A stretch of DNA of 64,000 bases from Vicinamibacterales bacterium (GTDB lineage Bacteria; Acidobacteriota; Vicinamibacteria; Vicinamibacterales; UBA8438): positions 2,530,377 through 2,594,376 of the forward strand of contig OZ244838.1 of assembly GCA_965220695.1 (NCBI GenBank), read 5' to 3'. Positions 6,456 to 29,654 of this stretch are shown one piece after another (positions within the stretch are counted from its first letter, which is position 1; the number at the start of each line of letters is the position of its first letter). The notes under the pieces were generated by a model. That model worked only from the letters and a program-made list of their open reading frames with translations. It was not told the origin of the DNA and did no database searches. Made by a program: the position numbers and the translations under genes.

Positions 6456-6491
6456 GCTTCCCTCTACAGACTCCTGGCAGCGCGTCAGACG

Positions 6492-9587: not shown

Positions 9588-9595
9588 GAGCGGCG

Positions 9596-12500: not shown

Positions 12501-12775
12501 GCGATCCCGTCGCGTGACATCGAGGCGACATCCTGCACGCCGGGGACGCCGCCGAGCGCCTGCTCGATCGGAATCGTCACCAGCTCCTCAATCTCGGCCG
12601 CGGGCGCGTCCTCCATCCGCACCTGCACCGAAACCTGCGGCAACTCAAGCGAGGGCAGAAGGTCGACCGGGATCCGCAGGCAGGCGACGACCCCGAACAG
12701 GACCACCGCCAGGGCGCCCATGCTCGCGCCGATCGGCCGCGCGACAAAGGTGCGAATCATCGCGTTCCGCTCCAA
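9596..12775 (-). CDS. RND (AcrB/MdtB-type) inner-membrane efflux permease
   Basis: 1059-aa ORF. N-terminus MIRTFVARPIGASMGALAVVLFG. AcrB-like motifs (AIIVVENI, GIGVDDAVVMVD). Tandem with a second RND permease, as in MdtBC-type heteromeric pumps. Confidence 0.85.
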   Translation of the reverse strand: MERNAMIRTFVARPIGASMGALAVVLFGVVACLRIPVDLLPSLELPQVSVQVRMEDAPAAEIEELVTIPIEQALGGVPGVQDVASMSRDGIAVITLTFPWMTDVDIAILNVRERLDEVRYGLPEAAAPPTVRRWDPGNRPFLVLAASTSDPRNGGSSGDLDWAGYGVSLAPAAGAQEAWRLIALSKAIRELLRPRLEQIPGVASAELAGARDERVLVEIDPARARLLDVAPAEIAEALRRAVTVPESGTLRKGPYRYSLRVPALVESVSDFATVVVSEPGADPRVLLADVARVGMAPSEPDSVLRFAGRPVVGIRLYKDASGNALALTDAVTGLLDEFRAQHPDIGLDVAYAQAGFIRDALRGALTSVVLGGALAFGVLFFFLGDWRQSVVIGIVVPVAVLGALAAMDWLDISINVISLGGLAVGVGLLVNTAIIVVENIQRHREQGFAPAAAATAGTSQVLAPITSVTVTTLVVFLPVVAVGGFAGALFRDQAVTVSVAVVVAWVVSLTLVPALSALLAGRGPVRAPKEPWTTVLGRLLGVLLRRRWLTLSAAAALVVAAAVGVLRTPREVAPPVDTGDVSVAADPRHGMAIEHLELAAATLEATIEAATDAEQVLTTAGLQAVNDLTGDGWMRRAAVRAQFHVADSAGVGDLGRAVERRLPGFDVRVEPTRTPLHDVLGLLAGPIDVAFSGADLAELRRLADAFAALVDDRGDLGRVVAAPPDPVSQVRLNLDQDALGAFGLSAAETAEQIGYVTRGDTVAQLRIGDPPLQVVLRHSLEHGASPASSLDRIPIVPRRGLVEGREGGAAARRPQVPLGLLGTPVADAAAAEITRRDHRRVLTVSLAPDGLARAGLERRLGEALAQLSLPPDVRVQVRTRSADAAESLASFRWVLIIALVLVAICLSAEFESVRLAFVVLLAVPLTLAGVVATWWVFGLTVNVFTIMAAAVLIGIGVDDAVVMVDFIRLKHRDAEPGGARQAIIAAALLRVRPILMTTVTTVLAVAPLALTTAPAHELQRALALTLIGGLLAGTVLSICVVPVLYDVLAPAPRREAVTC

Positions 12776-12777
12776 CT

Positions 12778-13311
12778 TCAGATGGCGGGAGGTTCCTCGT
12801 TCAACTGCTTGGGCGAGTGCGGCCTACCATCACCACGGTCCGCCTGTTTCAGACAGATGCCGCGCGCCTCAAGTGTACGCTCGACACACGCGATCGCGTG
12901 ATCGTTGCGGACCAGATGCTGGTGGAGCAGGTAATCGGCAACCGATGGCGGCGCCGAACCGTTCCGCCGATATTCGAGACCACCCCTGTCGAGAAGAGCC
13001 GCCGCGGTCCGGGGATCGCACGCGGAGAGCTCTGCCGCCGGGTCCCACCGCTCGCCGCCGTGCGATCTGACAATGAGCCTCAAAAGGCGCGCGAAGTCAA
13101 GCGACTCCTTCGTACGCTGACCGGCCGCAGTACACCGGGCGCGCACCGTGCTCACGCTGGCGCCGAGGAACTGTCCCCAGCTCGCCAATGTCTGCGGATC
13201 CGAGTCGCAGTCCAACGTTCGTACAACGAGCGATGCCCAACTGGCGTATGCGTTCACTTTCTGCACCTGCGGAAGACTCAATGGACGACGACGCATTCCT
13301 GTCCATGCCAC
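12778..13311 (-). CDS. Hypothetical protein with a possible helix-turn-helix; first gene of the RND operon
   Basis: 177-aa ORF (GTG 13311, alternative ATG 13296). Its stop is 2 nt before the RND start. The segment TLASWGQFLGASVSTVRARC looks HTH-like. No family recognised. A 128-bp internal piece is copied at 20738 and 22262. Confidence 0.45.
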   Translation of the reverse strand: MAWTGMRRRPLSLPQVQKVNAYASWASLVVRTLDCDSDPQTLASWGQFLGASVSTVRARCTAAGQRTKESLDFARLLRLIVRSHGGERWDPAAELSACDPRTAAALLDRGGLEYRRNGSAPPSVADYLLHQHLVRNDHAIACVERTLEARGICLKQADRGDGRPHSPKQLNEEPPAI

Positions 13312-13610: not shown

Positions 13611-13841
13611 ATGTGCAGAGTCATGAGGACGTGGCGGACGGAGTTCGTAATGGTGTTGCTTGCCCTTTGCTTGGTTGCCACCGCTACGGCAACGGTGACG
13701 GCGCAGATTGAATCGGAGTACCCCTGTCTCTTGTGGTTTGAGGGAATTGCCGAGGTCGACATCGACGAAGGTTGCCACTTCGTGCCCGGTGGCGAAGGAT
13801 GCGTGTATTGCTATATGCAAATAAACATAACCGTAGAATAG
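13611..13841 (+). CDS. Small secreted Cys-rich acidic peptide (76-aa precursor, ~46-aa mature)
   Basis: ATG 13611 is preceded by GGAGG. Signal-like MCRVMRTWRTEFVMVLLALCLVATATATVTA, then QIESEYPCLLWFEGIAEVDIDEGCHFVPGGEGCVYCYMQINITVE (4 Cys). Codon usage is more AT-rich than the neighbours. No family recognised. Confidence 0.5.
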   Translation: MCRVMRTWRTEFVMVLLALCLVATATATVTAQIESEYPCLLWFEGIAEVDIDEGCHFVPGGEGCVYCYMQINITVE

Positions 13842-13920: not shown

Positions 13921-15171
13921 ATGCGAACGACACGGAGCCGGTGCGGCCGGGCAACCGGTCGCAGAGCGCGCTCTTCGCGCGGATCCTTCGTGATCGGTTC
14001 CCACCGGCAGTGCGTCCGTCTGGGGCTGCTTGGCGCGGCACTGGTAACGGCCTGCGCCGGGCCGACGCAGCCGCATGCGATCGATGCGCAAGGCCGCCCG
14101 GCGGTCATTGATGAGAGGATTACGATTACGTGGCCGGTGGGTGTGCCCTCGGGAGTGATCGCTAACATTGAGATTTGCGGCGATCGCGCGTATCTGCGTG
14201 TGGCTCGGCAGCAAGTGATCCGCGTGGTTGACCTCGCTGCAGGACGGGTGGTGGGGCAGATCGGCCGCGGCGGTGAAGGGCCCGGCGAGTTGCGGTCCCC
14301 GACAGGTCTCATGGTGGATTGCGCCCGCGGGAGGCTCTATGTCGGCGAGGGTCCCTCCGGCATCACCGTCTATCGCCTTTCGGACGGGGAGTACGTGCGA
14401 AAATATTTCCAGCCGGATACCTTCGGGTTGACCGTCGGGTCTCCGATGTTTCTGTCGCCGGACGGCGCACGCCTGTTTGCGGGAGGATTGTGGGCGGCAT
14501 CAATGGAGCGATGGCGGGGCTTCAACCGCCGCCCGCAGGATGAAGTGCTGGCAGGGATGCAATTGGGCTTGGCCGTGTCCCTGGCGGACGGCGCCGCGAC
14601 ACCGTTGTTGTCGGGCCCGATCGAAACCACCTGTATCGGTTTGTTCGAGAACTGCCGTACCGTGACGATAGCGCGTGTGGACGGCGCGTCGGACCCGTGG
14701 GTCGTTGCGCAGGCCACCGCGACCTCGCTCGGCGTGTACGACCACGACGGTGCGCTGGTGCGCACCATCGACGTGCGGTCGCCGTCGTTTCTGCGCGACG
14801 GGTCCCGCGCGCAGCGCATGAGCCGCGACGGCGGCGGGCTGGTGGCCATGGCGGATTGGGGCCTGACCAACAGCACCATCCGGATGGTCTACGCATTCGG
14901 GAATGTTATCGCCACCGTGCACCGACATCATGCAGTGGAGTACAACCAGCTGGGAACGATGCAGTACAACGTCTTCATGAACCTGCACTCGCACGATGGG
15001 GATGCGCTTGTCAGTGACATCCGCCTGCCGGGTCTTCCGCTGGGACGCGACGACACGCACCTGCTGTTCATCGACTGGGGGCAGGCCGGACGCAGGATGG
15101 CCTTCGACGCGGTGGACCTCGTGCGCGTGCCGGTCCTGGCCGGCGAGGCCGGCTTCGTGCGGGGCGAATAG
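13921..15171 (+). CDS. NHL-repeat-like beta-propeller lipoprotein, paralog 1 of 5
   Basis: Track ORF 13855..15171. ATG 13921 (MRTTRSRCGR...) is conserved in all five paralogs. Lipobox-like LGAALVTAC. NHL-like motif GQIGRGGEGPGELRSP. Conserved Cys pairs (ICGDRAY, DCARGRL, TCIG..ENCRTV). Confidence 0.7.
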   Translation: MRTTRSRCGRATGRRARSSRGSFVIGSHRQCVRLGLLGAALVTACAGPTQPHAIDAQGRPAVIDERITITWPVGVPSGVIANIEICGDRAYLRVARQQVIRVVDLAAGRVVGQIGRGGEGPGELRSPTGLMVDCARGRLYVGEGPSGITVYRLSDGEYVRKYFQPDTFGLTVGSPMFLSPDGARLFAGGLWAASMERWRGFNRRPQDEVLAGMQLGLAVSLADGAATPLLSGPIETTCIGLFENCRTVTIARVDGASDPWVVAQATATSLGVYDHDGALVRTIDVRSPSFLRDGSRAQRMSRDGGGLVAMADWGLTNSTIRMVYAFGNVIATVHRHHAVEYNQLGTMQYNVFMNLHSHDGDALVSDIRLPGLPLGRDDTHLLFIDWGQAGRRMAFDAVDLVRVPVLAGEAGFVRGE

Positions 15172-15172
15172 C

Positions 15173-15736
15173 ATGGAGGACTCGTTGGATGCACCCGGAT
15201 CCACGACCGGCACGTCGACGGCGGCAACTGCCGACGGCGAGGCGGCGAGGTCGACGGTCGCCGGCCGTACGGTCGGGCGGCCCCGTTCCAGGTTGCGTGT
15301 GGCGGCCAGACTGCTGTTGGGGGCGCTGATCCTCGTGTCCGTCGGCGTGCTCATCAGCGACTACCGGCGGCAAGTCACCTGGACACGGGATCTGGCGGCG
15401 GCGTATGCGTTCGTCGCGGACCATCCCGAGGTGTCACGGTATCTCCCCTGCTTTTGCGGTTGCGGTCAACAGGCGGGACATTCGTCCGTGGACAGTTGCT
15501 TCGTGAGTCGACGGGACGATGCAGGGAACGTCGTCTCCGAGAACGCACACGCCAGAACCTGACCGGTGTGCGTCGACATCGCGCGTGTCGCGATGCGGAT
15601 GCACCAAGGCGGCGACACGGTTTCCGAGATTCAAGGCGCCATCGATGGAGCATACGGGGCGACGAATGTCCTCAGAACCGACACCCCGGCATGGCCAGAC
15701 CAGCGACCGGCCGCGGAGGCCGAGACGCCGCAGTAG
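15173..15736 (+). CDS. Membrane-anchored PCYCGC-family protein with in-frame TGA at 15560-15562 (candidate selenocysteine, U-P-V-C), copy 1
   Basis: ATG lies 1 nt after the NHL-1 stop (TAGcATG). TM helix RLRVAARLLLGALILVSVGVLI. AYAFVADHPEVSRYLPCFCGCGQQAGHSSVDSCF matches the PCYCGC signature. The track ORF stops at TGA 15560, but the frame stays open 57 more codons (PVCVDIARVAMRMHQGGDTVSEIQGAIDGAYG...) to TAG 15734-15736. A hairpin follows the TGA. Confidence 0.6.
15568..15604 (+). promoter_or_regulatory. SECIS-like hairpin 6 nt downstream of TGA 15560
   Basis: GUGCGUC/GGAUGCAC outer stem (7 bp, one G-U), a 2x2 internal loop, CAUCGCG/CGCGAUG inner stem (7 bp) and apical loop CGUGU at 15584-15588, i.e. 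22-26 nt after the UGA. Identical in all three copies. Confidence 0.5.
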
Positions 15737-15860
15737 TGGCAGGTGGACCTGGCACCGGAGGCTATATGGCTCGACACGTTCCAACCGCATGGTCCTCAGC
15801 GGCCCATAGCAGTCCGTGGTGAAACCCGCGTTGCACCGAGATCGGCGATGCGCGCGCTGA

Positions 15861-16147
15861 GCAAGACCTGTAGGGGCAACCCTTGTGGTTGCCCTGTTGT
15901 ACGCAAGACCTGTAGGGGCAACCCTTGTGGTTGCCCTGTTGTACGCAAGACCTGTAGGGGCAACCCTTGTGGTTGCCCTGTTGTACGCAAGACCTGTAGG
16001 CGCAACCCTTGTAGTTGCCCTGTTGTACGCAAGACCTGTAGGGGCAACCCTTGTGGTTGCCCTGTTGTACGCAAGACCTGTAGGCGCAACCCTTGTAGTT
16101 GCCCTGTTGTACGCAAGACCTGTAGGGGCAACCCTTGTGGTTGCCCT
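15861..16147 (+). repeat. Tandem array of 7 x 42-bp REP-like hairpin units
   Basis: Unit gcaagacctgtaGGGGCAACCcttgtGGTTGCCCtgttgtac (8-bp stem, 5-nt loop). Copies start at 15861, 15903, 15945, 15987, 16029, 16071 and 16113. Copies 4 and 6 carry the same two substitutions (taggCgcaacccttgtAgttgccc). Confidence 0.9.
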
Positions 16148-16197
16148 CTTCGTCAGCAGGAACAACGACGCGCAGCAGGATGCAGCGTGAAACAGCA

Positions 16198-16257
16198 GAA
16201 TTCAGCGGGGAAAGGCTGAATTCAGCGGGAGAGCTCAGAATTCAGCGGGGATCGAAC
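16198..16257 (+). repeat. Tandem array of 3 x 20-bp GAATTCAGCGGG units
   Basis: GAATTCAGCGGG at 16198, 16218 and 16238, plus a degenerate fourth unit. The core (C)TGAATTCAG is palindromic and AT-rich relative to the genome. Confidence 0.85.
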
Positions 16258-16429
16258 GCAGCGGGGCTTTTGCCACGGACTGCTACTAACCGCCTGATCA
16301 GGTCACCGTCTCCGAGCTCCCGCACTGCAGATGACGCGAACGAGGATCAGCGTTCCCCTCCTCTACTCCATCTCATCCTCGTTCAGAGCCGTTGCCGGCC
16401 CCAACCGATTCAGACCGCCGTCGGGCGCC

Positions 16430-16620
16430 TCACAAACTGTATCCGTCCGGCGAGTACGCGACGGCCTCCGGGAAGTAGATGTTCTCGATGATGGATCGAC
16501 CCATGTAGACGGGCGAGGTCGCGGTCCTGTTCCGAGCCAGGGTCCGCATGAACGCGTTCTCGTCCTTCGGCGCCGGGATGCCCACCTCAAGGCAGATGCG
16601 GACTATGCCGGGGACGACGC
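16430..16620 (-). pseudogene. Dead 3'-terminal fragment of the alpha/beta hydrolase gene found intact at 26805..27962
   Basis: Track ORF 16430..16639 ends ...GIVRICLEVGIPAPKDENAFMRTLARNRTATSPVYMGRSIIENIYFPEAVAYSPDGYSL. The intact gene's C-terminus reads ...GIVRTCLEVGIPAPEDENAFMRTLARNRTATSPVYMGRSIIENIYFPGAVAYSPDGYSF. No N-terminal part is present. Confidence 0.85.
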
Positions 16621-16657
16621 GCGCCGGCAGAGGGTACACCGATGGGTCCGTAAGGAG

Positions 16658-16702
16658 TCTGCGCCGTCAGTAGGTTGTAAGCTGTATTCTCTGCGGCGCA
16701 GA
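16658..16702 (+). promoter_or_regulatory. Conserved leader element with 9-bp inverted repeat upstream of NHL paralogs 2-5
   Basis: TCTGCGCCG-(27 nt AT-rich: tcagtaggttgtaagctgtattctctg)-CGGCGCAGA. Near-identical blocks lie ahead of the starts at 19462, 20983 and 22503. Function unknown. Confidence 0.3.
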
Positions 16703-16738
16703 TTCCACGAGCGCGCCGCGCGAGAGGGACGCGGAACG

Positions 16739-17998
16739 ATGCGAACGACACGGCGTCGATGTGGCCGGGCGTGGCGGGTGATCGGCTACCGTGGGCACTC
16801 TCAGGGCAGGTCGTCCGTTGTCGGTTCGCACCGGCATTTTGTTTACCTGGGGCTGCTTGGCGCGGCACTGGTGACGGCCTGCGGCGGACCGACGCAGCCG
16901 TATGCGGTCGATGCGCAAGGGCGTCCGGCGGTCATTGATGACAGGATGACGATAACGTGGCCGGTGGGCGTGCCCTCGGGGCTGATTGCTAGCATCGAGA
17001 CCTGCGGCGGTCGCGCGTATCTGCACGTTGCTGGGCAGCAAGTGTTCCGCGTGGTTGACCTCGCCGCCGGGCGGGTTGTGGGGCAGATTGGCCGCGGCGG
17101 CGAAGGGCCCGGCGAGTTGCGGCAGCCGATAAGTCTCCTGGCGGATTGCGCACGCGGGAGGCTCTTCGTCGGCGAGGCTCCGGCCGGCATCACGGTCTAT
17201 CGCCTTCCGGACGGGGAGTACCTGCGAGAATTCTCCCTGCCGTGGCGTACGTTCGGGTTGTCTACCTTTACTCCGATGTTTCTGTCGCCGGACGGCGCAC
17301 GCCTGTTTGCGGGCGGGTTGTGGGCATCAAGAGATCGATGGCAGGGCTTTAGCCGGCGCCCGCAGGATGAAGTGCTGGCGGGGATGCAATCGGGTCTGGC
17401 CTTGTCCCTGGTGGACGGCGCGGCGGCGCCCTTGTTCTCGAGCCCGATCGAACCCGCCTGCATCGGATCGCAAAACGACTGTCGCACCGTGGCGATAGCG
17501 CGTGTGGAGGGGGCGCCGGACCCGTGGATCGTCGCGCAGGCCACCGCGACCTCGCTCGGCGTGTACGACGACGACGGTGCGCTGGTGCGCACCATCGACG
17601 TGCGGTCGCCGTTGTTCCTGCGCGACGGGTTCCGCGCGCGGCGCATGAGCCGCGATGGCGGGGGCTTTGCGGCCATGGTGGATTGGGGCCTGACCAACAG
17701 CACCGTCGGGAACGTCTACGCATTCGGGGACGTGATCGCCACCGTGCACCGACATCATGCAGTGGAGTACAACCAGCCGGGGCCCCTGCAGTACAACGTC
17801 CTCATGAACCTGCACTCGCACGATGGGGATGGGCTGGTCAGCGACATCCGCCTGCCGGGTCTTCCGCTGGGACGCGACGACACGCACCTGCTCTTCATCG
17901 ACTGGGGGCAGGCTGGACGCAGGATGGCCTTCGACGCGGTGGACCTCGTGCGGGTGCCGGTCGTGGCCGGCGAGGCCGGCTTCGTGCGGGGCGAATAG
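16739..17998 (+). CDS. NHL-repeat-like beta-propeller lipoprotein, paralog 2
   Basis: Track ORF 16331..17998. Conserved ATG 16739 (MRTTRRRCGRAW...), LGAALVTAC lipobox, GQIGRGGEGPGELRQP. High identity to paralog 1. Confidence 0.7.
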   Translation: MRTTRRRCGRAWRVIGYRGHSQGRSSVVGSHRHFVYLGLLGAALVTACGGPTQPYAVDAQGRPAVIDDRMTITWPVGVPSGLIASIETCGGRAYLHVAGQQVFRVVDLAAGRVVGQIGRGGEGPGELRQPISLLADCARGRLFVGEAPAGITVYRLPDGEYLREFSLPWRTFGLSTFTPMFLSPDGARLFAGGLWASRDRWQGFSRRPQDEVLAGMQSGLALSLVDGAAAPLFSSPIEPACIGSQNDCRTVAIARVEGAPDPWIVAQATATSLGVYDDDGALVRTIDVRSPLFLRDGFRARRMSRDGGGFAAMVDWGLTNSTVGNVYAFGDVIATVHRHHAVEYNQPGPLQYNVLMNLHSHDGDGLVSDIRLPGLPLGRDDTHLLFIDWGQAGRRMAFDAVDLVRVPVVAGEAGFVRGE

Positions 17999-17999
17999 C

Positions 18000-18542
18000 A
18001 TGGAGGACTCTGTGGACGCACCCGGATCCACGACCGACACGTCGACGGCGGCGAGTTCGACGGTCGCCGGCCGAACGGTCGGGCGGCCCCGTTCCAGGAT
18101 GCGTGTGGCGGCCAGACTGCTGTTGGGGGCGCTGATCCTCGTGTCCGCCGGCGTGCTCATCAGCGACTACCGGCGGCAAGTCACCTGGACGCGAGATCTT
18201 GCGGCGGCGTATGCGTTCGTCGCGGACCATCCCGAGGTGTCACGGTATCTCCCCTGCTTTTGCGGTTGCGGTCAACAGGCGGGACATTCGTCCGTGGACA
18301 GTTGCTTCGTGAGTCGACGGGACGAGGCAGGGAACGTCGTCTCCGAGAACGCACACGCCAGAACCTGACCGGTGTGCGTCGACATCGCGCGTGTCGCGAT
18401 GCGGATGCACCAACGCGGCGACACGGTTTCCGAGATTCAAGGCGCCATCGATGGAGCATACGGGGCGACGAATGTCCTCAGAACCGACACCCCGGCATGG
18501 CCAGACCAGCGACCGGCCGCGGAGGCCGAGACGCCGCAGTAG
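18000..18542 (+). CDS. PCYCGC-family candidate selenoprotein, copy 2 (in-frame TGA 18366-18368)
   Basis: ATG lies 1 nt after the NHL-2 stop. Same architecture as copy 1, with a 7-aa deletion in the N-terminal tail. The frame continues from the TGA to TAG 18540-18542. Confidence 0.6.
18374..18410 (+). promoter_or_regulatory. SECIS-like hairpin after TGA 18366
   Basis: Sequence identical to the hairpin at 15568-15604. Confidence 0.5.
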
Positions 18543-18664
18543 CGGCGGGTGGACCTGGCGCCGGAGGCTATGGTTCGACCCGCTCCAACCGCATGGTCCT
18601 CAGCGGCCCATAGCAGTCCGTGGTGAAACCCGCGTTGCACCGAGATCGGCGATGCGCGCGCTGA

Positions 18665-18825
18665 GCAAGACCTGTAGGGGCAACCCTTGTGGTTGCCCTG
18701 TTGTACGCAAGACCTGTAGGGGCAACCCTTGTGGTTGCCCTGTTGTACGCAAGACCTGTAGGCGCAACCCTTGTAGTTGCCCTGTTGTACGCAAGACCTG
18801 TAGGGGCAACCCTTGTGGTTGCCCT
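18665..18825 (+). repeat. Tandem array of 4 x 42-bp REP-like hairpin units
   Basis: Units start at 18665, 18707, 18749 (variant type) and 18791. Same consensus as the array at 15861. Confidence 0.9.
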
Positions 18826-18875
18826 CTTCGTCAGCAGGAACAACGACGCGCAGCAGGATGCAGCGTGAAACAGCA

Positions 18876-18975
18876 GAATTCAGCGGGGAATGGCTGAATT
18901 CAGCGGGTGAGCTCAGAATTCAGCGGGGAAAGGCTGAATTCAGCGGGAGAGCTCAGAATTCAGCGGGGATCGAAT
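18876..18975 (+). repeat. Tandem array of 5 x 20-bp GAATTCAGCGGG units
   Basis: GAATTC at 18876, 18896, 18916, 18936 and 18956, plus a degenerate terminal unit. Confidence 0.85.
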
Positions 18976-19158
18976 GCAGCGGGGCTTTTGCCACGGACTG
19001 CTACTAACCGCCAGATCCGGTCACCGGCTCCGAGCTCCCGCACTGCAGATGACTCCAACGAGGATCAGCGTTCCACTCCTCTACTCCATCTCATCCTCCT
19101 TCAGAGCCCTTGCCGGCCCCAACCGATTCGGACCGCCGCCGCCGCACCGTCGGGCGCC

Positions 19159-19340
19159 TCAGAAACTGTATCCGTCCGGCGAGTACGCGATGGCCCCCGG
19201 GAAGTAGATGTTCTCGATGATGGAGCGACCCATGTAGACGGGGGACGTCGCGGTCCTGTTTCGAGCCACGGTCGGCATGAACGCGTTCTCGTCCTCCGCC
19301 GCCGGAATGCCCAACTCGAGGCAGGTGCGGACTATGCCGG
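19159..19340 (-). pseudogene. Second dead 3'-terminal fragment of the alpha/beta hydrolase gene
   Basis: Track ORF 19159..19368 ends ...GIVRTCLELGIPAAEDENAFMPTVARNRTATSPVYMGRSIIENIYFPGAIAYSPDGYSF. Confidence 0.85.
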
Positions 19341-19461
19341 GGACAACGCGGGACGGCACAGGGTGCACCGATGGGTCCGCAAGGAGTCTGCGCCGTCAGT
19401 ATGTTGTAAGCTGTATTTTCTGCGCCGCAGATTGCGTCGCGCGAGAGGGGCGCGGAACGAA

Positions 19462-20736
19462 ATGCGAACGACACGGAGCCGATGTGGCCGGGCGTGGCGG
19501 GTGATCCGCTACCGTGGGCACTTTCGGCGCAGGTCGTCCGTTGTTGGTTCCCACCGGCATTTCGTTTGCCTGGGACTGCTTGGCGCGGCGCTGATAGCGG
19601 CCTGCGGCGAGCCGAGGCAGTATGCGGTCGATGCTCACGGGCGTCCGGCGGTCATTGACGATCGCGTGACGATAACGTGGCCGGTGGACGTGCCCTCGGG
19701 ACTGATCCTTCTTGCCGCGACCTGCGGTGATCGCATGTATCTGCGCGCGACAGGCCAGCAACGCGCGTCTCGCCAGCAAGTGATCCGCGTGGTTGACCTC
19801 GCCGCCGGACGGGTGGTGGGGCAGATCGGCCGAGGCGGCGAAGGGCCCGGCGAGTTGGAACAGCCGACAACTCTCCTGGCGGATTGCGCACGCGGGAGGC
19901 TCTTCGTCGGCGACCCTCCGGCCGGCATCAAGGTATATCGCCTTCCGGACGGGAAGTATCTGCGAGATTTCTCCCTGCCGTGGCGTACGTTCGGGTTGTC
20001 CACTTTGACTCCGATGTTTCTGTCGCCGGATGGCGCACACCTGTTTGCGGGCGGGTTGTGGGCATCAACAGATCAATGGATGGGCTTCAACGCGCGTCCG
20101 CAGGATGAAATGCTGGCGGCGATGCAATTGGGCTTGGCCTTGTCCCTGGCGGACGGCACGGCGGCGCCGTTGTTCTCTGGTCCGGTCGAAACTGCCTGCA
20201 TTGGATTGCCCGAGAACTGCCGCACGGTGACGATAGCGCGTGTGGACGGGGCGCCGGACCCGTGGATCGTCGCGCAGGCCACCGCGACCTCGCTCGGCGT
20301 GTACGACGACGACGGGGCGCTGGTGCGCACCATCGACGTGCGGTCGCCATCGTTCCTGCGGGACGGATCCCGGGCGCGGCGCATGAGACGCGATGGTGGG
20401 GGCTATGCGGCCATGGTGGATTGGGGCCTGACCAACAGCACCATCCGGAACGTCTACGCATTCGGGGACGTGATCGCGACCGTGCATCGGTATCACGCCA
20501 CGGAGTACAACCAGCAGGGGCCCCTGCAGTACAACGTCTTCATGAACCTGCACTCGTACGATGGGGATGGGCTGGTCAGCGACATCCGCCTGCCGGGTCA
20601 TCCGGTGGGCCGCGACGACACGCACCTGCTCTTCATCGACTGGGGGCAGGCCGGACGCAGGATGGCCTTCGACGCGGTGGACCTCGTGCGCGTGCCGGTC
20701 CTGGCCGGCGAGGCCGGCTTCGTGCGGGGCGAATAG
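19462..20736 (+). CDS. NHL-repeat-like beta-propeller lipoprotein, paralog 3
   Basis: Track ORF 18907..20736. Conserved ATG 19462 (MRTTRSRCGRAW...). Carries a short internal duplication (LRATGQQRASRQQVIRVVD) that is shared with paralog 4. Confidence 0.7.
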   Translation: MRTTRSRCGRAWRVIRYRGHFRRRSSVVGSHRHFVCLGLLGAALIAACGEPRQYAVDAHGRPAVIDDRVTITWPVDVPSGLILLAATCGDRMYLRATGQQRASRQQVIRVVDLAAGRVVGQIGRGGEGPGELEQPTTLLADCARGRLFVGDPPAGIKVYRLPDGKYLRDFSLPWRTFGLSTLTPMFLSPDGAHLFAGGLWASTDQWMGFNARPQDEMLAAMQLGLALSLADGTAAPLFSGPVETACIGLPENCRTVTIARVDGAPDPWIVAQATATSLGVYDDDGALVRTIDVRSPSFLRDGSRARRMRRDGGGYAAMVDWGLTNSTIRNVYAFGDVIATVHRYHATEYNQQGPLQYNVFMNLHSYDGDGLVSDIRLPGHPVGRDDTHLLFIDWGQAGRRMAFDAVDLVRVPVLAGEAGFVRGE

Positions 20737-20737
20737 C

Positions 20738-20865
20738 GGGGATTGCACGCGGAGAGTTCGGCTGCCGGGTCCCACCGCTCGCCGCCGTGCGATCTGACGA
20801 TGAGCCTCGGCACGCGGGCGAAGTCAAGCGACGCCTTCGTACGCTGGCCGGCCGCAATACACCGG
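20738..20865 (-). pseudogene. 128-bp internal fragment of the 12778..13311 gene, copy A
   Basis: Aligns to 13011-13138 (ggggatYgcacgcggaga...gtcccaccgctcgccgccgtgcgatctgac...acaccgg). Starts 2 nt after the NHL-3 stop. Confidence 0.8.
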
Positions 20866-20982
20866 ATCGGCACAGGGTGCACCGATCGGTCGGCAAGGAG
20901 TCGGCGCCGTCAGTATGTTGTAAGTTGATTTCTTGCGACGCAGATTCGCCGCTTGCGCCGCGCGAGAGGGGCGCGGAACGAA

Positions 20983-22260
20983 ATGCGAACGACACGGAGC
21001 CGATGTGGCCGGGCGTGGCGGGTGATCGGCTACCGTAGGCACTCTCAGCGCAGGTGTTCCGTGATCGGTTCCCACCGGCAGTTCGCCTGTCTGGGGCTGC
21101 TTGGCGCGGCGCTGGTGACGGCCTGCGCCGGACCGACGCAGCCGTATGCGGTCGATGCGCAAGGGCGCCCGGCGGTCATCGACGATCGGGTGACGATAAC
21201 GTGGCCGGCGGGCGTGCCCTCGGGACTGATCGTTCTTGCCGCGACCTGCGGTGATCGCGTGTATCTGCGCGCGACTGGCCAACAACGCGCGTCTCGCCAG
21301 CAAGTGATCCGCGTGGTTGACCTCGCCGCCGGACGGGTGGTGGGGCAGATCGGCCGCGGCGGCGAAGGGCCCGGCGAGTTGCAGCAGCCGACAACTCTCC
21401 TGGCGGATTGCGCACGCGGGAGGCTCTTCGTCGGCGACCCTCCGGCCGGCATCAAGGTCTATCGCCTTCCGGACGGGGAGTACCTGCGAGATTTCTCCCT
21501 GCCGTGGCGTACGTTCGATTTGTCCACCTTGACTCCGATGTTTCTGTCGCCGGATGGCGCACGCCTGTTTGCGGGCGGGATGTGGGCATCAACAGAACAA
21601 TGGCTGGGCTTCAACGCGCGCCCGCAGGATAAATTGCTGGCGGGGATGCAATTGGGCTTGGCCTTGTCCCTGGCGGACGGCGCGGCGGCACCGTTGTTCT
21701 CTGGTCCGGTCGAAACCGCCTGCATTGGATTGCCCGAGAACTGCCGCAACGTGACGATAGCGCGTGTGGACGGGGCGCCGGACCCGTGGATCGTCGCGCA
21801 GGCCACCGCGACCTCGCTCGGCGTGTACGACGACGACGGCGCGCTGGTGCGCACCATCGACGTGCGGTCGCCGTCGTTCCTGCGCGACGGGTCTCGCGCG
21901 CGGCGCATGAGCCGCGATGGCGGGGGCTATTCGGCCATGGTGGATTGGGGCCTGACCAACAGCACCATCCAGGACGTCTACGCATTCGGGGACGTGATCG
22001 CCACCGTGCATCATTATCACGCCACGGAGCGCAACCAGCAGGGGCCCCTGCAGTACAACGTCTTCATGAACCTGCACTCGCACGATGGGGATGGGCTGGT
22101 CAGCGACATCCGCCTGCCGGGTCATCCGGTGGGCCGCGACGACACGCACCTGCTCTTCGTCGACTGGGGGCAGGCCGGACGCAGGATGGCCTTCGACGCC
22201 GTGGACCTCGTGCGCGTGCCGGTCCTGGCCGGCGAGGCCGGCTTCGTGCGGGGCGAATAG
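20983..22260 (+). CDS. NHL-repeat-like beta-propeller lipoprotein, paralog 4
   Basis: Track ORF 20953..22260. Conserved ATG 20983. Same motifs as the other paralogs. Confidence 0.7.
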   Translation: MRTTRSRCGRAWRVIGYRRHSQRRCSVIGSHRQFACLGLLGAALVTACAGPTQPYAVDAQGRPAVIDDRVTITWPAGVPSGLIVLAATCGDRVYLRATGQQRASRQQVIRVVDLAAGRVVGQIGRGGEGPGELQQPTTLLADCARGRLFVGDPPAGIKVYRLPDGEYLRDFSLPWRTFDLSTLTPMFLSPDGARLFAGGMWASTEQWLGFNARPQDKLLAGMQLGLALSLADGAAAPLFSGPVETACIGLPENCRNVTIARVDGAPDPWIVAQATATSLGVYDDDGALVRTIDVRSPSFLRDGSRARRMSRDGGGYSAMVDWGLTNSTIQDVYAFGDVIATVHHYHATERNQQGPLQYNVFMNLHSHDGDGLVSDIRLPGHPVGRDDTHLLFVDWGQAGRRMAFDAVDLVRVPVLAGEAGFVRGE

Positions 22261-22261
22261 C

Positions 22262-22388
22262 GGGGATCGCACGCGGAAAGCTCTGCTGCCGGGTCCCACC
22301 GCTCGCCGCCGTGCGATCTGACGATGAGCCTCAAGGCGGGCGAAGTCAAGCGACTCCTTCGTACGCTGGCCGGCCGCAATACACCGGG
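22262..22388 (-). pseudogene. 128-bp internal fragment of the 12778..13311 gene, copy B
   Basis: Aligns to 13011-13138. Starts 2 nt after the NHL-4 stop. Confidence 0.8.
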
Positions 22389-22502
22389 CCGGCACAGGGT
22401 GCACCGCTGGGTCCGCAAGAAGTCTGCGCCCACAGATGTTGTAGGCTGTATTTTCTGCGGCGCAGACTCCCCGAGTGCGCCGCGCGAGAGGGGCGCGGAA
22501 CG

Positions 22503-23771
22503 ATGCGAACGACACGGCGCCGATGTGGCCGGGCGTGGCGGGTGACCGGGCACCGTGTGCGCTCTCAGGGCAGGTCGTCCGTTGTCGGTTCGTACCGGCA
22601 TTTTGTTTACCTGGGGCTGCTTGGCGCGGCGCTGATAACGGCCTGCGCCGAGCCGAGGCAGTATGCGGTCGATGCGCACGGGCGTCCGGCGGTCATCGAC
22701 GAACGGGTGACGATAACGTGGCCGGTGGGCGTGCCCTCGGGACTGATCAACGGTGTCGAGACCTGCGGCGATCGCGCGTATCTGCACGTGTCTCGGCAGC
22801 AAGCGATCGGCATCCGCGTGGTTGACCTCGTCGCCGGACGGGTGGTGGGGCAGATCGGCCGAGGCGGCGAAGGGCCCGGCGAGTTGCGGCAACCGATAAG
22901 TCTCCTGGCGGATTGCGCACGCGGGAGGCTCTTCGTCGGCGAGGCTCCGGCCGGCATCACGGTCTATCGCCTTTCGGACGGGGAGTACCTGCGAGAATAC
23001 CCCCTGCCGCGGCGTCCCTTCACCTTCGGGTTTTCCACCCTTACTCCGATGTTTCTGTCGCCGGACGGCGCACGCCTGTTTGCGGGCGGGTTGTGGGCAT
23101 CAAGAGAACGATGGCAGGACTTCAGTTGGCGCCCGCAGGATGAAGTGCTGGCGGGGATGCAATCGGGTCTGGCCTTGTCGCTGGCGGACGGCGCGGCGGC
23201 GCCCTTGTTCTCGAGCCCGATCGAACCCGCCTGCATCGGATCGCACAACGACTGCCGCATCGTGACGATAGCGCGTGTGGACAGGGCGCCGGACCCGTGG
23301 ATCGTCGCGCAGGCCACTGCGACCTCGCTCGGCGTGTACGACGACGACGGCGCGCTGGTGCGCACCATCGACGTGCGGTCGCCGTCGTTCCTGCGCGACG
23401 GGTCCCGCGCGCGGCGCATGAGCCGCGATGGCGGGGGCTTTGCGGCCATGGCGGATTGGGGCCTGACCAACAGCACCATCCGGAGGGTCTACGCATTCGG
23501 GGACGTGATCGCCACCGTGCACCGACATCATGCAGTGGAGTACAACCAGCCGGAATACCTCCAGTACAACGTCTTCATGAACCTGCACTCGCACGATGGG
23601 GATGGGCTGGTCAGCGACATCCGCCTGCCGGGTCTTCCGCTGGGACGCGACGACACGCACCTGCTGTTCATCGACTGGGGGCAGGCCGGACGCAGGAACG
23701 CCTTTGATGAAGTGGACCTCGTGCGCGTGCCGGTCCTGGCCGGCGAGGCCGGCTTCGTGCGGGGCGAATAG
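22503..23771 (+). CDS. NHL-repeat-like beta-propeller lipoprotein, paralog 5
   Basis: In frame within track ORF 21786..23771. Conserved ATG 22503 (MRTTRRRCGRAW...). The upstream part of the track ORF is an out-of-context read-through across paralog 4. Confidence 0.7.
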   Translation: MRTTRRRCGRAWRVTGHRVRSQGRSSVVGSYRHFVYLGLLGAALITACAEPRQYAVDAHGRPAVIDERVTITWPVGVPSGLINGVETCGDRAYLHVSRQQAIGIRVVDLVAGRVVGQIGRGGEGPGELRQPISLLADCARGRLFVGEAPAGITVYRLSDGEYLREYPLPRRPFTFGFSTLTPMFLSPDGARLFAGGLWASRERWQDFSWRPQDEVLAGMQSGLALSLADGAAAPLFSSPIEPACIGSHNDCRIVTIARVDRAPDPWIVAQATATSLGVYDDDGALVRTIDVRSPSFLRDGSRARRMSRDGGGFAAMADWGLTNSTIRRVYAFGDVIATVHRHHAVEYNQPEYLQYNVFMNLHSHDGDGLVSDIRLPGLPLGRDDTHLLFIDWGQAGRRNAFDEVDLVRVPVLAGEAGFVRGE

Positions 23772-23772
23772 C

Positions 23773-24336
23773 ATGGAGGACTCGTTGGACGCACCCGGAT
23801 CCACGACCGGCGCGGCGACGGCGGCAACTGCCGACGGCGAGGCGGCGAGGTCGACGGTCGCCGGCCGTTCGGTCGGGCGGCCCCGTTCCAGGTTGCGTGT
23901 GGCGGCCAGACTGCTGTTGGGGGCGCTGATCCTCGTGTCCGTCGGCGTGCTCATCAGCGACTACCGGCGGCAAGTCACCTGGACACGGGATCTGGCGGCG
24001 GCGTATGCGTTCGTCGCGGACCATCCCGAGGTGTCACGGTATCTCCCCTGCTTTTGCGGTTGCGGTCAACAGGCGGGACATTCGTCCGTGGACAGTTGCT
24101 TCGTGAGTCGACGGGATGAGGCAGGACACGTCGTCTCAGAGAACGCACACGCCAGAACCTGACCGGTGTGCGTCGACATCGCGCGTGTCGCGATGCGGAT
24201 GCACCAACGCGGCGACACGGTTTCCGAGATTCAAGGCGCCATCGATGGAGCATACGGGGCGACGAATGTCCTCAGAACCGACACCCCGGCATGGTCAGGC
24301 CAGCGACCAGCCGCGGAGGCCGAGACGCCGCAGTAG
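23773..24336 (+). CDS. PCYCGC-family candidate selenoprotein, copy 3 (in-frame TGA 24160-24162)
   Basis: ATG lies 1 nt after the NHL-5 stop. The frame continues from the TGA to TAG 24334-24336. A few substitutions relative to copy 1 occur on both sides of the TGA. Confidence 0.6.
24168..24204 (+). promoter_or_regulatory. SECIS-like hairpin after TGA 24160
   Basis: Sequence identical to the hairpin at 15568-15604. Confidence 0.5.
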
Positions 24337-24896
24337 CGACAATCTCCCCGCTGCCTGCAGCTTCCACCGGTAGTATCCAACAGGCGCTGCCTGCGAACCA
24401 GGGGTTTCTTGGACAATTGCGGGCGACAGGGTGCTCGCGGGAAGAGTGTCGAGATGAGGAAGCAAGATCAGCGGCCGCTGATGTCCCTGACACTGTCAAC
24501 CGCACGTCTGGCGGTAGCGTCATCCTGCTGGATCGGCCGAAGGTGGGCCGCACGGACTCATGGGCGCGGGCTCGGCGCGAACCCAGCCAACTGCGAGGAG
24601 CGACGGATGGAGGCACGGTGCCGGGGCTCCGACCTGACCTTCCCGGAAGTAATCGATGACTTCGTGCGAAGACAGGAGCGGCTGTAATCCGGCGGATCGC
24701 CTCGGCGGACTTCGTCCGGCTACCGCCGTGCGAGTCCAACCTGTGTGTTCCGCGAGGGTTCGAACGTCGGCCGAACATCGGTTTGTGGGCGGCACGCCGC
24801 CGTGCTGCCGTATAATGCAGCCATGAGATGGGGTGCAACGTTGGAGCCGGCGCATCCTGGGGCCGAGAAGAATCAGGGCCGTCGAGGCTTGAAGAA

Positions 24897-25580
24897 ATGA
24901 CTGAGCCCGAGCTGATTCCCTTTGATATACAGCGTTCTGACATCTCCATTCAAGGGACGTTCGAGTCAGAGTTGTGGTGTCTTTTTCACGATGTGCCGCG
25001 ACTCTATTCCGGGCTGCTGCACGGGTTGCAGGACACCGGGATCACGCCAAACAGTATCAAGGTTGACAACGGAGACGGGAGCCTCGGTGGCTACAATGTC
25101 CAGTTCTGGCTGATCGATTTTCGTGTCATGGTGAGGGTCCGCCTCGACCGGTTCGAGATCGACTCTCGGAACATCGCGCAGTCGGACATAGCTCCGGTGG
25201 AGCATGTTCTGGTGGGGCTGGTCGATGCACTTGCTGCGTCAACATCAGGCTTTCGGGTGGCGAACTACACCGTGGATCTTCACTTGCACGGTGATGCCAT
25301 AGGCGTGGACCGAAATGAGTATCTGAGCCGCTTCGTGAAGAACGCTCCTGATCTCGGACCGAGCCTCGGTTCAGGATGCGTGTTCTATTTTGGCGATCAG
25401 CCTGGCGCAGCGCTCAGGACTGTGTCGGTAGACTTGTCGGGTGTGGTGCCGGGTAAGGTCTATGTGCGGCTTTATGCTTCCTTGGATGGTGCTATCGCTC
25501 CCGGAGATCTGAGGACGGTGGTGGAGAAGGAAGCGAAGGACAGCTTGGCTGCGATGGGCCTGAAAGCACAGGGGAAGTAG
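24897..25580 (+). CDS. Hypothetical protein (227 aa), lower-GC insert
   Basis: Track ORF 24828..25580. ATG 24897 (MTEPELIPFDIQ...) is preceded by GAGG. Composition is noticeably more AT-rich than the flanks. No family recognised. Confidence 0.5.
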   Translation: MTEPELIPFDIQRSDISIQGTFESELWCLFHDVPRLYSGLLHGLQDTGITPNSIKVDNGDGSLGGYNVQFWLIDFRVMVRVRLDRFEIDSRNIAQSDIAPVEHVLVGLVDALAASTSGFRVANYTVDLHLHGDAIGVDRNEYLSRFVKNAPDLGPSLGSGCVFYFGDQPGAALRTVSVDLSGVVPGKVYVRLYASLDGAIAPGDLRTVVEKEAKDSLAAMGLKAQGK

Positions 25581-25586
25581 CAGTCA

Positions 25587-26330
25587 GTGGTTCAGAACAT
25601 GCCTTCGCGGATTGGCGCGTTGATCGAGTGGCGACAATCGGCGATTCCCCCGTTCGGAACGCCGATTCCAGGGCAATCGCCTTCTCCGCAGCCGGGACCG
25701 CGCTGTTTTGGGTCTCCTCCGGTTGCAAGGCAGACTTCGGCGAGCGAACGGCGGTCGGGGTTCCTGCCTGGTGCGATCGGCGATTCTGCCTTCTTTGAGG
25801 AGGCAAGACTCGCGTGGGGCGGACTGGTTTCCGACAGCCGGCAAGTTCTTGGACGCATGCCCAGAGTGGCTGCAGCCGGCCGTGTATTGACTGTAGGCCT
25901 TGGGCCGTGGTCTCGCGAAACATCGACGCCTGAGTTGCTGTCCGAGCTGATGAAGTCGCCGGTCGCGCACGGGGAGACTGCAGCCTGGCAAACCAGGACT
26001 TTACCGATGGCGTCTGTCATCTGGTCCCTGGTCGAGCGTCAGCAGGTTGGAGCTGCCAGGCAACTCTTGTCGTCGTTGCCCGACGCGCTTGAGTATCGAC
26101 GGCTACGTTCGCTCCTGCGGCGACCACGCACCTGGTCGGCACCAAGAAGGGATCGAGAGCGGTCGGTAGATTTTCGGTGGCTGCGCCAGCACAGCCGCGA
26201 CTACGTCGGGCGGTGGGTCGCCCTTGCCGGCGGAAACCTACTGGCTGAGGCCGATTCTCTTCACGCGCTGCGCAGTCAACTCCGACAAGGCGCTCCACAG
26301 GCGAGGCCTCTGATCCACTTCATTAGGTAG
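25587..26330 (+). CDS. Protein with C-terminal DUF5678-like domain (start uncertain; alternative ATG 26007)
   Basis: The C-terminus FRWLRQHSRDYVGRWVALAGGNLLAEADSLHALRSQL...PLIHFI resembles the small W..H...Y.G.WVAl.g domain often found next to retropepsin-like proteases. The N-terminal 140 aa are low-complexity and may not be coding. Confidence 0.4.
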   Translation: MVQNMPSRIGALIEWRQSAIPPFGTPIPGQSPSPQPGPRCFGSPPVARQTSASERRSGFLPGAIGDSAFFEEARLAWGGLVSDSRQVLGRMPRVAAAGRVLTVGLGPWSRETSTPELLSELMKSPVAHGETAAWQTRTLPMASVIWSLVERQQVGAARQLLSSLPDALEYRRLRSLLRRPRTWSAPRRDRERSVDFRWLRQHSRDYVGRWVALAGGNLLAEADSLHALRSQLRQGAPQARPLIHFIR

Positions 26331-26334
26331 CCTG

Positions 26335-26790
26335 ATGCCGATGCTGGAACTTGAGGGAAAGCCGTTCAGCGTCGGGCGGGCTACGTATCTCGACACGCCC
26401 CCGGCTTCGCCGGGCGCGTCTTCCAGGATCTACGTCAAGATCGAGTTCGAAGGAGAGGACGGCCCCGTGATGCCTTTGGCGCTTCTCGACACCGGCGCCG
26501 AATGGTCTGTACTGGAGCGCGAGATTGCCGAGAGCGTTGGCTTGACAGGTGCTGATGGGCAGGCGATTACGTTAAGGCACAAGAACGGCGAGAGTTCTGG
26601 AAAGCTCGTCAAGGCGAACGTCCGACTTCTCGCCGATGAGGGCGAAGACCTTGTGGTGGAGGCAACGGTGTTTGTCCCCGACGAGAATCACGACGTCGGC
26701 GGCACATTCGTGGGTTACACGGCGTTGCTAGAGCAGGTGAGGCTCGGGCTCGATCCTCAGAACAATCAGATCTACTTCGGCAGATATTGA
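26335..26790 (+). CDS. Retropepsin-like (clan AA) aspartic protease
   Basis: 151-aa ORF with the catalytic-type motif LLDTGAEWSVL (D-T-G-A). Size is typical of single-lobe bacterial retropepsin-like proteins. Confidence 0.65.
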   Translation: MPMLELEGKPFSVGRATYLDTPPASPGASSRIYVKIEFEGEDGPVMPLALLDTGAEWSVLEREIAESVGLTGADGQAITLRHKNGESSGKLVKANVRLLADEGEDLVVEATVFVPDENHDVGGTFVGYTALLEQVRLGLDPQNNQIYFGRY

Positions 26791-26804
26791 GACCGTCGGG
26801 CGCC

Positions 26805-29495: not shown

Positions 29496-29616
29496 CGGCT
29501 ATCGGTGTGCCGGCCGGCGTGAGAGCGTGACCTGGCGCTACACGAGCACGGTAGCACCCCAGGCCGGCGCCGGCGCCGGCGTCGGAGGTGACCTGGTGCT
29601 CCGCGCGCACGGTAAG
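29471..29616 (+). repeat. About 2.5 copies of a ~60-bp tandem repeat seeded by the last 25 nt of the Sec-redoxin gene
   Basis: gcccggcgctccgcgagcacggtagc (29471-29496), gacctggcgctacacgagcacggtagc (29529-29555), gacctggtgctccgcgcgcacggtaag (29590-29616). Confidence 0.6.
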
Positions 29617-29654
29617 AACCGATGCGACCAGGGCGACATCGAACCGAGGTGAGC

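Follow-up and report, generated by a model that had tools for sequence, protein, structure and literature searches.

How does a bacterium come to carry five head-to-tail copies of one lipoprotein gene, and what has kept them in place? The question is raised by a stretch of 64,000 nucleotides (hereafter the window) on contig OZ244838.1 of a Vicinamibacterales bacterium from the Acidobacteriota. The source, itself a metagenome-assembled genome (MAG), is closed as a single contig of 5.8 Mb with ~67% G+C, of which the window covers bases 2530377-2594376. Between its positions 13921 and 23771 lie five paralogous genes for predicted beta-propeller lipoproteins, three of them followed by a gene of the PCYCGC family that is interrupted by an in-frame TGA. 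The initial annotation, made from the letters of the sequence, read this array as successive rounds of tandem amplification of an NHL lipoprotein gene in a pattern typical of dosage or diversifying selection. We consider it likely that the array is an old tandem family, shaped by birth and death after at least two duplications at microhomologies, and that its propeller belongs to a module suggested by the conserved gene neighbourhood.

Several relatives serve as comparison throughout. The nearest one in our collection is a sister species represented by a Vicinamibacterales MAG chromosome (G001, OZ253576.1; its array locus is L011). L014 is a 160-kb contig that was assembled independently from a different sample (ERZ25072076) at 12x coverage. 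A further lineage is represented by three contigs, L015, L016 and L017, which match the window at 97% identity in their flanks, and L013 is a third Vicinamibacterales genome (OZ244051.1). The window paralogs are named P1 to P5, the copies of G001 are G1_a, G1_b (middle) and G1_c (last), and those of a further relative M_a, M_b and M_c. The propeller family is present in three of 401 Acidobacteriota genomes; a k-mer search gave 19 matches and an exhaustive profile search 88 representatives at E <= 1e-30. Identity to the window family falls from 74% in L018 to 49% in L019 and 41% in L020. Searched genome-wide, the source holds no further close propeller copy outside the array.

Five propeller genes in two kinds of unit

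The array and the sequences from which its parts derive are laid out as follows.

12778-13311, minus strand: the 12778 gene (177 aa, family without assignment), directly upstream of the first permease gene of an efflux operon; source of the filler sequences
13921-15171, plus strand: propeller paralog 1, 416 aa, lipobox LVTAC; its ortholog is the last G001 copy
15173-15736, plus strand: PCYCGC copy 1, TGA at 15560-15562
15861-16161, plus strand: array of a 42-nt REP-like hairpin repeat, ~7 copies (6.8; TRF)
16418-16611: scar of a hydrolase 3' end at the right end of unit A1, 94% identical to 26793-26986; A junction at 16611/16612
16739-17998, plus strand: propeller paralog 2, 419 aa
18000-18542, plus strand: PCYCGC copy 2, TGA at 18366-18368
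18665-18825, plus strand: second array of the 42-nt REP-like repeat, ~4 copies (3.8; TRF)
19146-19340: second hydrolase 3'-end scar, right end of unit A2; A junction at 19340/19341
19462-20736, plus strand: propeller paralog 3, 424 aa, with an 18-nt tandem duplication at 19744-19779
20737-20865: first B-junction filler, copy of 13011-13140, joined 1 nt past the paralog 3 stop
20983-22260, plus strand: propeller paralog 4, 425 aa, with the same 18-nt duplication at 21268-21303
22261-22389: second B-junction filler, copy of 13011-13140
22503-23771, plus strand: propeller paralog 5, 422 aa; its ortholog is the middle G001 copy
23773-24336, plus strand: PCYCGC copy 3, TGA at 24160-24162
26805-27962, minus strand: intact alpha/beta hydrolase with a twin-arginine (Tat) signal (Pfam and NCBIfam), parent of both A scars

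The five starts first proposed (13921, 16739, 19462, 20983 and 22503) are exact ATG codons, and all five head-to-tail open reading frames (ORFs) are intact. Every paralog begins with MRTT, the opening 15 nt (ATGCGAACGACACGG) do not vary among the five ORFs, and a purine-rich GGGAG/GAGAGGG stretch lies 8-14 nt 5' of each ATG. Database calls in relatives place the start of this lipoprotein at a Val codon ~23 codons further in; here this shorter form is ruled out, because that codon is GTT in three of the paralogs, which leaves the ATG as the only start common to all five.

Self-comparison reveals five copies of a ~1.25-kb segment with start-to-start spacings of 2818, 2723, 1521 and 1520 bp. Since the repeats are kilobases long and 80-98% identical, a chance origin is excluded. 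The encoded proteins (416-425 aa) share 78-91% of their residues and their genes 84-94% of their nucleotides, so that the copies differ by 6-16% in DNA, and even the closest pair, P3 and P4, is different at 9% of residues.

Most of the unit contents described at the outset hold. Units 1 and 2 each contain the propeller, PCYCGC with its in-frame TGA, the 42-nt repeat block and the hydrolase fragment, with a spacer between the repeat block and the 194-nt fragment. Their period, put at about 2.81 kb for both, is right for unit 1 (2818 bp) and too long for unit 2 (2723 bp); the difference of ~95 bp is mostly accounted for by the 42-nt repeat, with 3.8 copies in unit 2 as against 6.8 in unit 1. Units 3 and 4 consist of a propeller plus a piece of the 12778 gene (~130 nt, 87-92% identical to 13011-13140), and the last propeller again has a PCYCGC partner. 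The duplication thought to be private to P3 and P4 is real and in tandem; its length is 18 nt or 6 aa and not the 7 aa first given. It was not found in any of the six copies from two compared relatives.

Junctions and the age of the array

What mechanism would produce two kinds of unit side by side? The joints themselves are informative. Class A units have their right end inside the hydrolase gene: the 194-nt scars derive from 26793-26986, a stretch made up of the final 60 codons of this minus-strand gene and 12 nt more, and hydrolase sequence ending ...ATGCCGG is joined to GGACAAC (...CCGG / GGACAAC). Class B units have theirs 1 nt past the propeller stop, followed by a 130-nt filler. At its left-hand joint (TAGC/GGGGATC), which lies exactly where the PCYCGC start codon normally stands, the filler sets in with position 13011 of the 12778 gene; at its right-hand joint 12778-gene sequence ending ...ACACCGG meets GCCGGCACAGG, 13 nt further in, and both partners read CCGGGC. 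The left ends of the two classes are 13 nt apart, at two neighbouring CCGG motifs.

The native context 5' of a propeller consists of the end of a small peptide gene (...AGAATAG) and then ACACCGGACAACCCGGGCCGG..CACAGGGTGCACCG; paralog 1 has it, and two of the L015 copies show it in cleaner form. L015 also holds a third class of junction, in which a PCYCGC codon (...GALIL) is joined to the tail of the peptide gene. A conserved 65-nt element upstream of the propellers was considered as a continuation of the 12778 homology and rejected, the extension being weak and GC-rich; the homology ends at 13140.

Novel joints that include pieces of flanking genes together with microhomology are what tandem segmental duplication by illegitimate recombination leaves behind, and all of these are found here. 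Class A is a simple tandem-duplication joint and class B a compound one, with a 130-nt filler templated from 7.7-9.3 kb away. The short microhomology at both joints is consistent with replication-based illegitimate recombination. As sequence comparison shows, at least two such microhomology-mediated duplications built the array: one (class A) copied the block from the propeller to the first 194 nt of the adjoining hydrolase gene, the other (class B) the propeller alone, with 130 nt of the nearby 12778 gene serving as template for the patch at its joint. The proposal of two amplification rounds with different breakpoints stands as far as two duplication classes with distinct breakpoints are concerned; it does not stand as a description of recent rounds in this genome.

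The dating comes from the relatives. The B junction occurs twice in G001 with the same breakpoints, and the A junction recurs in L015, L016 and L017. Synonymous divergence (dS) between the window paralogs is 0.10-0.32, compared with 0.038-0.067 for flanking orthologs of the window and G001, and P1/G1_c (dS 0.037) and P5/G1_b (dS 0.056) are ortholog pairs. Two or three of the paralog lineages have orthologs in G001. A tree of the eleven copies groups them as (P1, G1_c), (P5, G1_b, M_b), (P2, M_a), (P3, P4, G1_a) and M_c, with support of 100% for P1/G1_c and 93% for P3/P4/G1_a; the P5/G1_b/M_b node reaches only 63%, but pairwise dS within it is 0.056-0.08. Both junction classes and no fewer than three of the paralog lineages thus predate the divergence of these genomes, and for this reason the five copies are no recent amplification.

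Birth, death and gene conversion

After duplication the family has evolved by birth and death, with unequal crossing-over and deletion altering both copy number and gene order. The copy-number variation anticipated for the array is indeed observed, from one to five copies among relatives:

Window and L014: 5 copies
L024: at least 4 copies
G001: 3 copies
L015 / L016: 3 copies
L025: at least 3 copies
L018: 1 copy
L023: 1 copy, between insertion sequence (IS) elements
L013: a 90-codon remnant

Gene order is not conserved either, the ortholog of paralog 1 being the last copy in G001. In L013 (10001-10623) the propeller is cut down to its last 90 codons, between a permease gene of the resistance-nodulation-division (RND) type and a PCYCGC gene, with a gene for a membrane-fusion protein (MFP) next to them. 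The single propeller of L023 (3631-9714) is flanked by transposase genes of the IS240 and rve types beside a MacB-type exporter, a layout which suggests that the propeller gene can also move with IS elements. G001 has, between the 12778 ortholog and the peptide gene, a 1.8-kb insertion that is not in the window and carries a 491-aa transposase-like ORF (L011 13167-14642).

The units are also not uniform inside. Between units 1 and 2 the 5' half of the propeller is 70-81% identical, while identity reaches 97% in PCYCGC, 98% in the repeat block and 92% in the hydrolase scar; because identity varies so much along unit A, later recombination has made the units mosaic. The three PCYCGC copies have a dS of 0.035-0.074 as against 0.11-0.25 for their partner propellers, and along the propeller itself the first 100 codons have a synonymous divergence of 0.20-0.28, the last 170 one of 0.06-0.13. 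This gradient is explained by gene conversion of the 3' part and not by selection at the protein level.

One conversion was caught between two strains. L014 is 99.7-99.85% identical to the window, except for 97.8% across unit 2 and for differing numbers of the 42-nt repeat. P1, P3 and P5 are identical in the two strains. In P4, nine substitutions fall within 39 nt and all nine are P3 bases: the tract, which lies in L014, is a gene conversion from P3. The 15 differences in P2 are scattered, many of them matching other paralogs. Non-allelic conversion of this kind keeps the 3' third of the propellers and the PCYCGC genes alike, and the 5' two-thirds of the propellers drift apart under relaxed purifying selection.

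Relaxed constraint or redundant copies

Does anything beyond drift distinguish the copies? The ratio of nonsynonymous to synonymous divergence (dN/dS) is 0.35-0.84 over all pairs of the eleven copies, 0.43-0.84 among the five in the window and 0.44-0.52 in phylogenetically independent pairs; neighbouring genes have 0.10-0.42. A sliding window gives ratios of nonsynonymous to synonymous differences per site (pN/pS) of 1.1-1.56 around residues 120-186. Positive selection on this segment was tried and rejected: in independent pairs omega is 0.5-1.4 with P(omega > 1) >= 0.34, and no single pair is significant. The diversifying selection put forward in the initial annotation thus finds no backing in a significant dN/dS above 1, gene-wide or in residues 120-186. 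Among the five copies 30% of the mature positions vary; the proportion is 38% for residues 48-252 and drops to 20% for residues 253-416. When variable positions were set against the secondary structure of the predicted model, loops were not enriched (odds ratio 0.69, P = 0.14). Judged from these ratios, constraint is relaxed and uneven, and positive selection is neither shown nor excluded.

Such numbers invite the view that the paralogs are simply redundant, doing the same job and drifting under relaxed constraint, with copy number a by-product of a recombination-prone locus. A dN/dS without significant excess over 1 and variable sites without preference for loops would fit this, as would relatives that manage on one to three copies and the decayed copies or remnants in L013, L019, L022 and L025. 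Yet five of five copies in the window and three of three in G001 are intact despite a divergence deeper than the species split, all five window copies keep the invariant residues of the family (in an alignment with only one G001 copy), and most of the variation falls into the first two-thirds of the protein (38% of sites, versus 20% in the last third). We regard purely neutral birth and death as a possible but doubtful account of the array.

The propeller and its partners

What, then, does the family encode? The NHL label of the initial annotation is only a weak one: no paralog matches Pfam NHL (PF01436) at E <= 0.01, the NCBIfam ScyF NHL model is matched partially and with 26 bits against a cut-off of 350, and the family profile aligns with repeats of giant NHL-like proteins just in its positions 60-170. 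DUF5128 (PF17170) is recognized in paralog 1 with 25.1 bits (cut-off 22.9; positions 45-127 of 321) and stays under the cut-off in paralogs 2-5 (18.9-22.7 bits). An AlphaFold2 (AF2) model of paralog 1 (pLDDT 73, pTM 0.76) is an all-beta propeller. Its best Foldseek match is 3s9j, the Bacteroides DUF4221 lipoprotein BVU_1028 (E = 7e-11, TM-scores 0.53/0.59); compared with the Brat NHL domain (1q7f), this same model of pLDDT 73 reaches TM-scores of 0.48/0.67, with WD40 and other propellers about as close. The predicted fold is hence a beta-propeller.

The lipobox L-[VI]-[TA]-A-C is found in all five paralogs and across the family. Four Cys are invariant, each of the five paralogs retains the 60+ invariant residues of the family, and conservation is strong in the C-terminal third. 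The precursors (13921-14055 and equivalents) carry an unusually long n-region: ~30 residues, 9-11 of them Arg/His, precede the hydrophobic core.

The nearest structural likeness is to the six-bladed propeller lipoproteins of the DUF4221/DUF5128 type from Bacteroides (3s9j BVU_1028, 4raa BF0058), which are likewise lipoproteins without an assigned function. These Bacteroides families also occur as multi-copy arrays beside small peptide genes. In contrast, identity to them is ~12%, the phylum is different, the Pfam match spans ~80 of the 321 model positions and exceeds the cut-off in paralog 1 alone, and the partners here are a four-Cys peptide with a Sec-type signal and a PCYCGC selenoprotein in efflux operons. 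A search of the literature on DUF5128, DUF4221, NVEALA and BF3164 returned nothing functional.

The PCYCGC gene starts 1 nt past the propeller stop (TAGcATG) and is thereby coupled to the propeller gene. Read through the TGA, its product scores 79.6 bits against PF13798 (profile positions 53-151 of 153), compared with 42.7 bits when stopped there; NF041379 gives 61.3 bits, below the equivalog cut-off of 90. The TGA falls in a UxxC motif, UPVC here and CKVC in the L020 homolog. A 14-bp hairpin follows 6-8 nt past the UGA, with a z-score of -0.3 to -0.6 that is not significant in such GC-rich sequence, and the genome encodes tRNA-SeC(tca) and SelA. With a Cys homolog, a hairpin and both tRNA and SelA at hand, decoding of this TGA as selenocysteine is plausible.

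The CYCXC/OS_HP4 family has already been catalogued as a UxxC selenoprotein (PMC13188914). Our copies share with the CYCXC/PCYCGC family the PCxCGC motif, the UxxC site, a Pfam domain that continues through the TGA, a Cys homolog and the selenocysteine machinery, and differ from it in being triplicated and translationally coupled to a propeller lipoprotein. Both the window genome (G000:C1:4395419-4395736) and G001 have a second PCYCGC gene elsewhere, 48% identical and also with an in-frame TGA. The sole PCYCGC gene of the G001 array (G001:C1:969952-970263) ends after residue 104, just past its PCFCGC motif.

The 42-nt repeats downstream of PCYCGC form the hairpin GGGGCAACCC-TTGT-GGTTGCCC. Its core, GGGGCAACCCTTGTGGTTGCCC, has 145 + 149 matches (<=4 mismatches) across the 5.8-Mb genome, often in tandem and with differing period, and within the window the family is also found at 35504 and 53720-53956. 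The repeats are thus a REP-like (repetitive extragenic palindromic) family of ~290 copies genome-wide; a mobile element private to the locus is ruled out, because the hairpin occurs throughout the genome. In unit 1 the repeat count is ~7 in the window strain versus ~2 in the 99.8%-identical L014.

Two further components complete the neighbourhood.

5211-12775, minus strand: RND efflux operon with two tandem AcrB-type permeases (12775-9596 and ~9974-6492) and a membrane-fusion protein (6455-5211)
13611-13841, plus strand: small secreted peptide gene at the head of the array, 76 aa, comprising a signal peptide and a ~45-aa mature part with four Cys

The RND-RND-MFP operon (Pfam ACR_tran and HlyD_3, NCBIfam RND_permease_2 and RND_mfp) is headed by the 12778 gene and transcribed divergently from the array. 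In six contexts, G001, L018, L019, L020 and L021 among them, the gene immediately upstream of the propeller encodes a four-Cys peptide. Every family member examined has such a peptide upstream, always a Sec-type signal plus 27-46 residues with C-x11-17-C-x5-9-C-x2-4-C. In L018, RND permease, RND permease, small peptide, propeller, PCYCGC (with selenocysteine) and membrane-fusion protein succeed each other on one strand. L019 has the order RND, small peptide, propeller, decayed transmembrane remnant and MFP, the remnant being one that may derive from a PCYCGC-type gene, and L020 has PCYCGC (Cys form), small peptide, propeller and a MacB-type ATP-binding cassette exporter. L021 and L022 are two further contexts of the module. 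PCYCGC adjoins the propeller in L018 and L020, and efflux genes adjoin it in L018, L019, L020 and L022.

The peptide itself is highly variable. The window and G001 (L011 12691-12966, minus strand) share almost the same signal peptide; their mature parts can be aligned only as protein, with pS 0.80 and pN 0.50. This pS compares with ~0.04 in the flanking genes, and the flanks are 97% identical. The peptide alleles look old and swapped, and not merely fast-evolving.

From this conserved neighbourhood we infer an extracytoplasmic module in which the propeller lipoprotein is joined by a Sec-exported four-Cys peptide and by a PCYCGC (UxxC) selenoprotein anchored in the membrane. The propeller would bind the peptide or a pump substrate in the periplasm, as an accessory of tripartite efflux, and the selenoprotein would carry out thiol/disulfide or soft-metal chemistry. 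Extra propeller copies would offer diverged binding surfaces and not a higher dose.

Two known systems offer analogies. In the gene sets of quinoprotein amine dehydrogenases, the heavy subunit is a beta-propeller, the light subunit is small and rich in Cys, and a thiol-redox helper such as MauD is anchored in the membrane. The set described here likewise combines a propeller with a small Cys-rich polypeptide that is secreted and with a thiol-redox partner in the periplasm, but it lacks haem and radical-SAM maturases, its peptides are hypervariable and it is linked to efflux; tryptophan- or cysteine-tryptophylquinone cofactors (TTQ/CTQ) are unlikely, because no Trp is conserved in the peptide. 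Tripartite pumps of the MacAB-TolC type, in turn, provide a route by which small disulfide-bonded peptides with a Sec signal are exported from the periplasm. As there, a Cys-rich Sec-signal peptide is encoded beside RND/MacB pump genes; neither the propeller nor the selenoprotein has an equivalent in the MacAB-TolC type of route.

Several observations weigh against our reading of the array and its module. Paralogs 3 and 4 are without a PCYCGC partner, so pairing is not obligatory, and G001 keeps three intact propellers though its local PCYCGC gene is truncated. A single peptide gene faces five propellers. Moreover, the mosaic units made by recombination blur the exact order of the duplications, and the similarity of the 3' parts could stem in part from constraint and not from conversion.

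A more elaborate scheme would make the array the variable arm of an undescribed module. The hypervariable four-Cys peptide, disulfide-rich and bacteriocin-like or signalling, would undergo maturation in the periplasm and leave the cell through the tripartite pump; the PCYCGC protein would be an oxidoreductase, the propellers would be specific binders (immunity proteins or receptors), and the five copies a collection of specificities that includes orphans for the alleles of neighbouring strains. Paralog 1, for instance, follows the peptide allele of the window; its G001 ortholog would be an orphan, being the last copy in an array headed by another peptide allele of ancient divergence. We think this scheme rather unlikely.

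Dosage and assembly as alternatives

Returning to an old family under birth and death, how does it compare with a recent origin? An adaptive gene-dosage amplification of the transient tandem type, arisen recently in this genome, would account for the head-to-tail layout, for short periods such as 1.52 kb and for copy numbers that differ among relatives. Dosage selection predicts near-identical copies, however, and these are not seen: dS between copies (0.10-0.32) exceeds the between-species value of the flanks (0.04-0.07), and even P3 and P4 are already 9% apart in residues. The junctions are shared with sister lineages (G001 and L015), and the five-copy state is stable in two strains. The dosage claim is therefore unsupported, and a recent amplification seems to us very improbable.

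An assembly artefact would come to mind since the source genome is a MAG: a tandem array that does not exist might have been pieced together from the variants of several strains, or from a repeat that the assembly had collapsed or expanded. It can be set aside with near certainty because the same gene order and five-copy layout recur in the independently assembled L014 contig from another sample, the copies are 6-16% apart in DNA, ~30x the strain-level divergence of the flanks (0.15-0.3%), and discrete junction scars are common to two other lineages. All comparisons point to an array that is real and inherited.

Neighbouring sequence

Between the third PCYCGC copy and the intact hydrolase gene lies one segment that sets the window apart from G001.

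24342-26792, plus strand: three-gene segment, two unassigned genes and a retropepsin-like aspartyl protease (Pfam Asp_protease_2)

Its products have 250, 247 and, for the protease, 151 aa. The segment is present in L014 and absent from G001, and its G+C content is lower (61%). It is a later replacement of the repeat block and spacer seen in A1, A2 and G001, and lies outside the repeat unit. Tested for a defence function, the three inserted genes and the propeller gave no PADLOC matches. The protein of the 12778 gene, intact and conserved in G001, had no match in Pfam, NCBIfam or PADLOC. No sigma-70-like promoters were found in the region, terminator-like sites are at chance level and a search for RNA families gave no Rfam matches. 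Further downstream, two long ORFs overlap at 29538-30794: the plus-strand one (29622-30794) encodes a second alpha/beta hydrolase (NCBIfam), and the minus-strand one, with a dN/dS of 1.9 against G001, is probably no gene.

What the array means

The features of the locus are those of tandem families under birth-and-death and concerted evolution: head-to-tail units, scars of neighbouring genes, microhomology, a templated insertion, variable copy number and a conversion tract. Nothing essential sets it apart from the known families; what is particular is that it comes from an uncultured soil lineage and that both junction classes are older than the species. The array is thus a textbook-quality natural case of how bacterial tandem families arise and persist, though not new in kind. 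It combines trans-species persistence with one to five copies among close relatives and two classes of microhomology junction, one of them with a templated filler.

The part that deserves follow-up is the conserved set of peptide, propeller and CYCXC selenoprotein, which in remoter relatives lies inside RND/MacB operons. If the pairing of peptide and propeller proves to be specific, it would give a function to a selenoprotein family that is catalogued and so far unexplained, and would reveal a new kind of efflux-pump accessory module in soil Acidobacteria.

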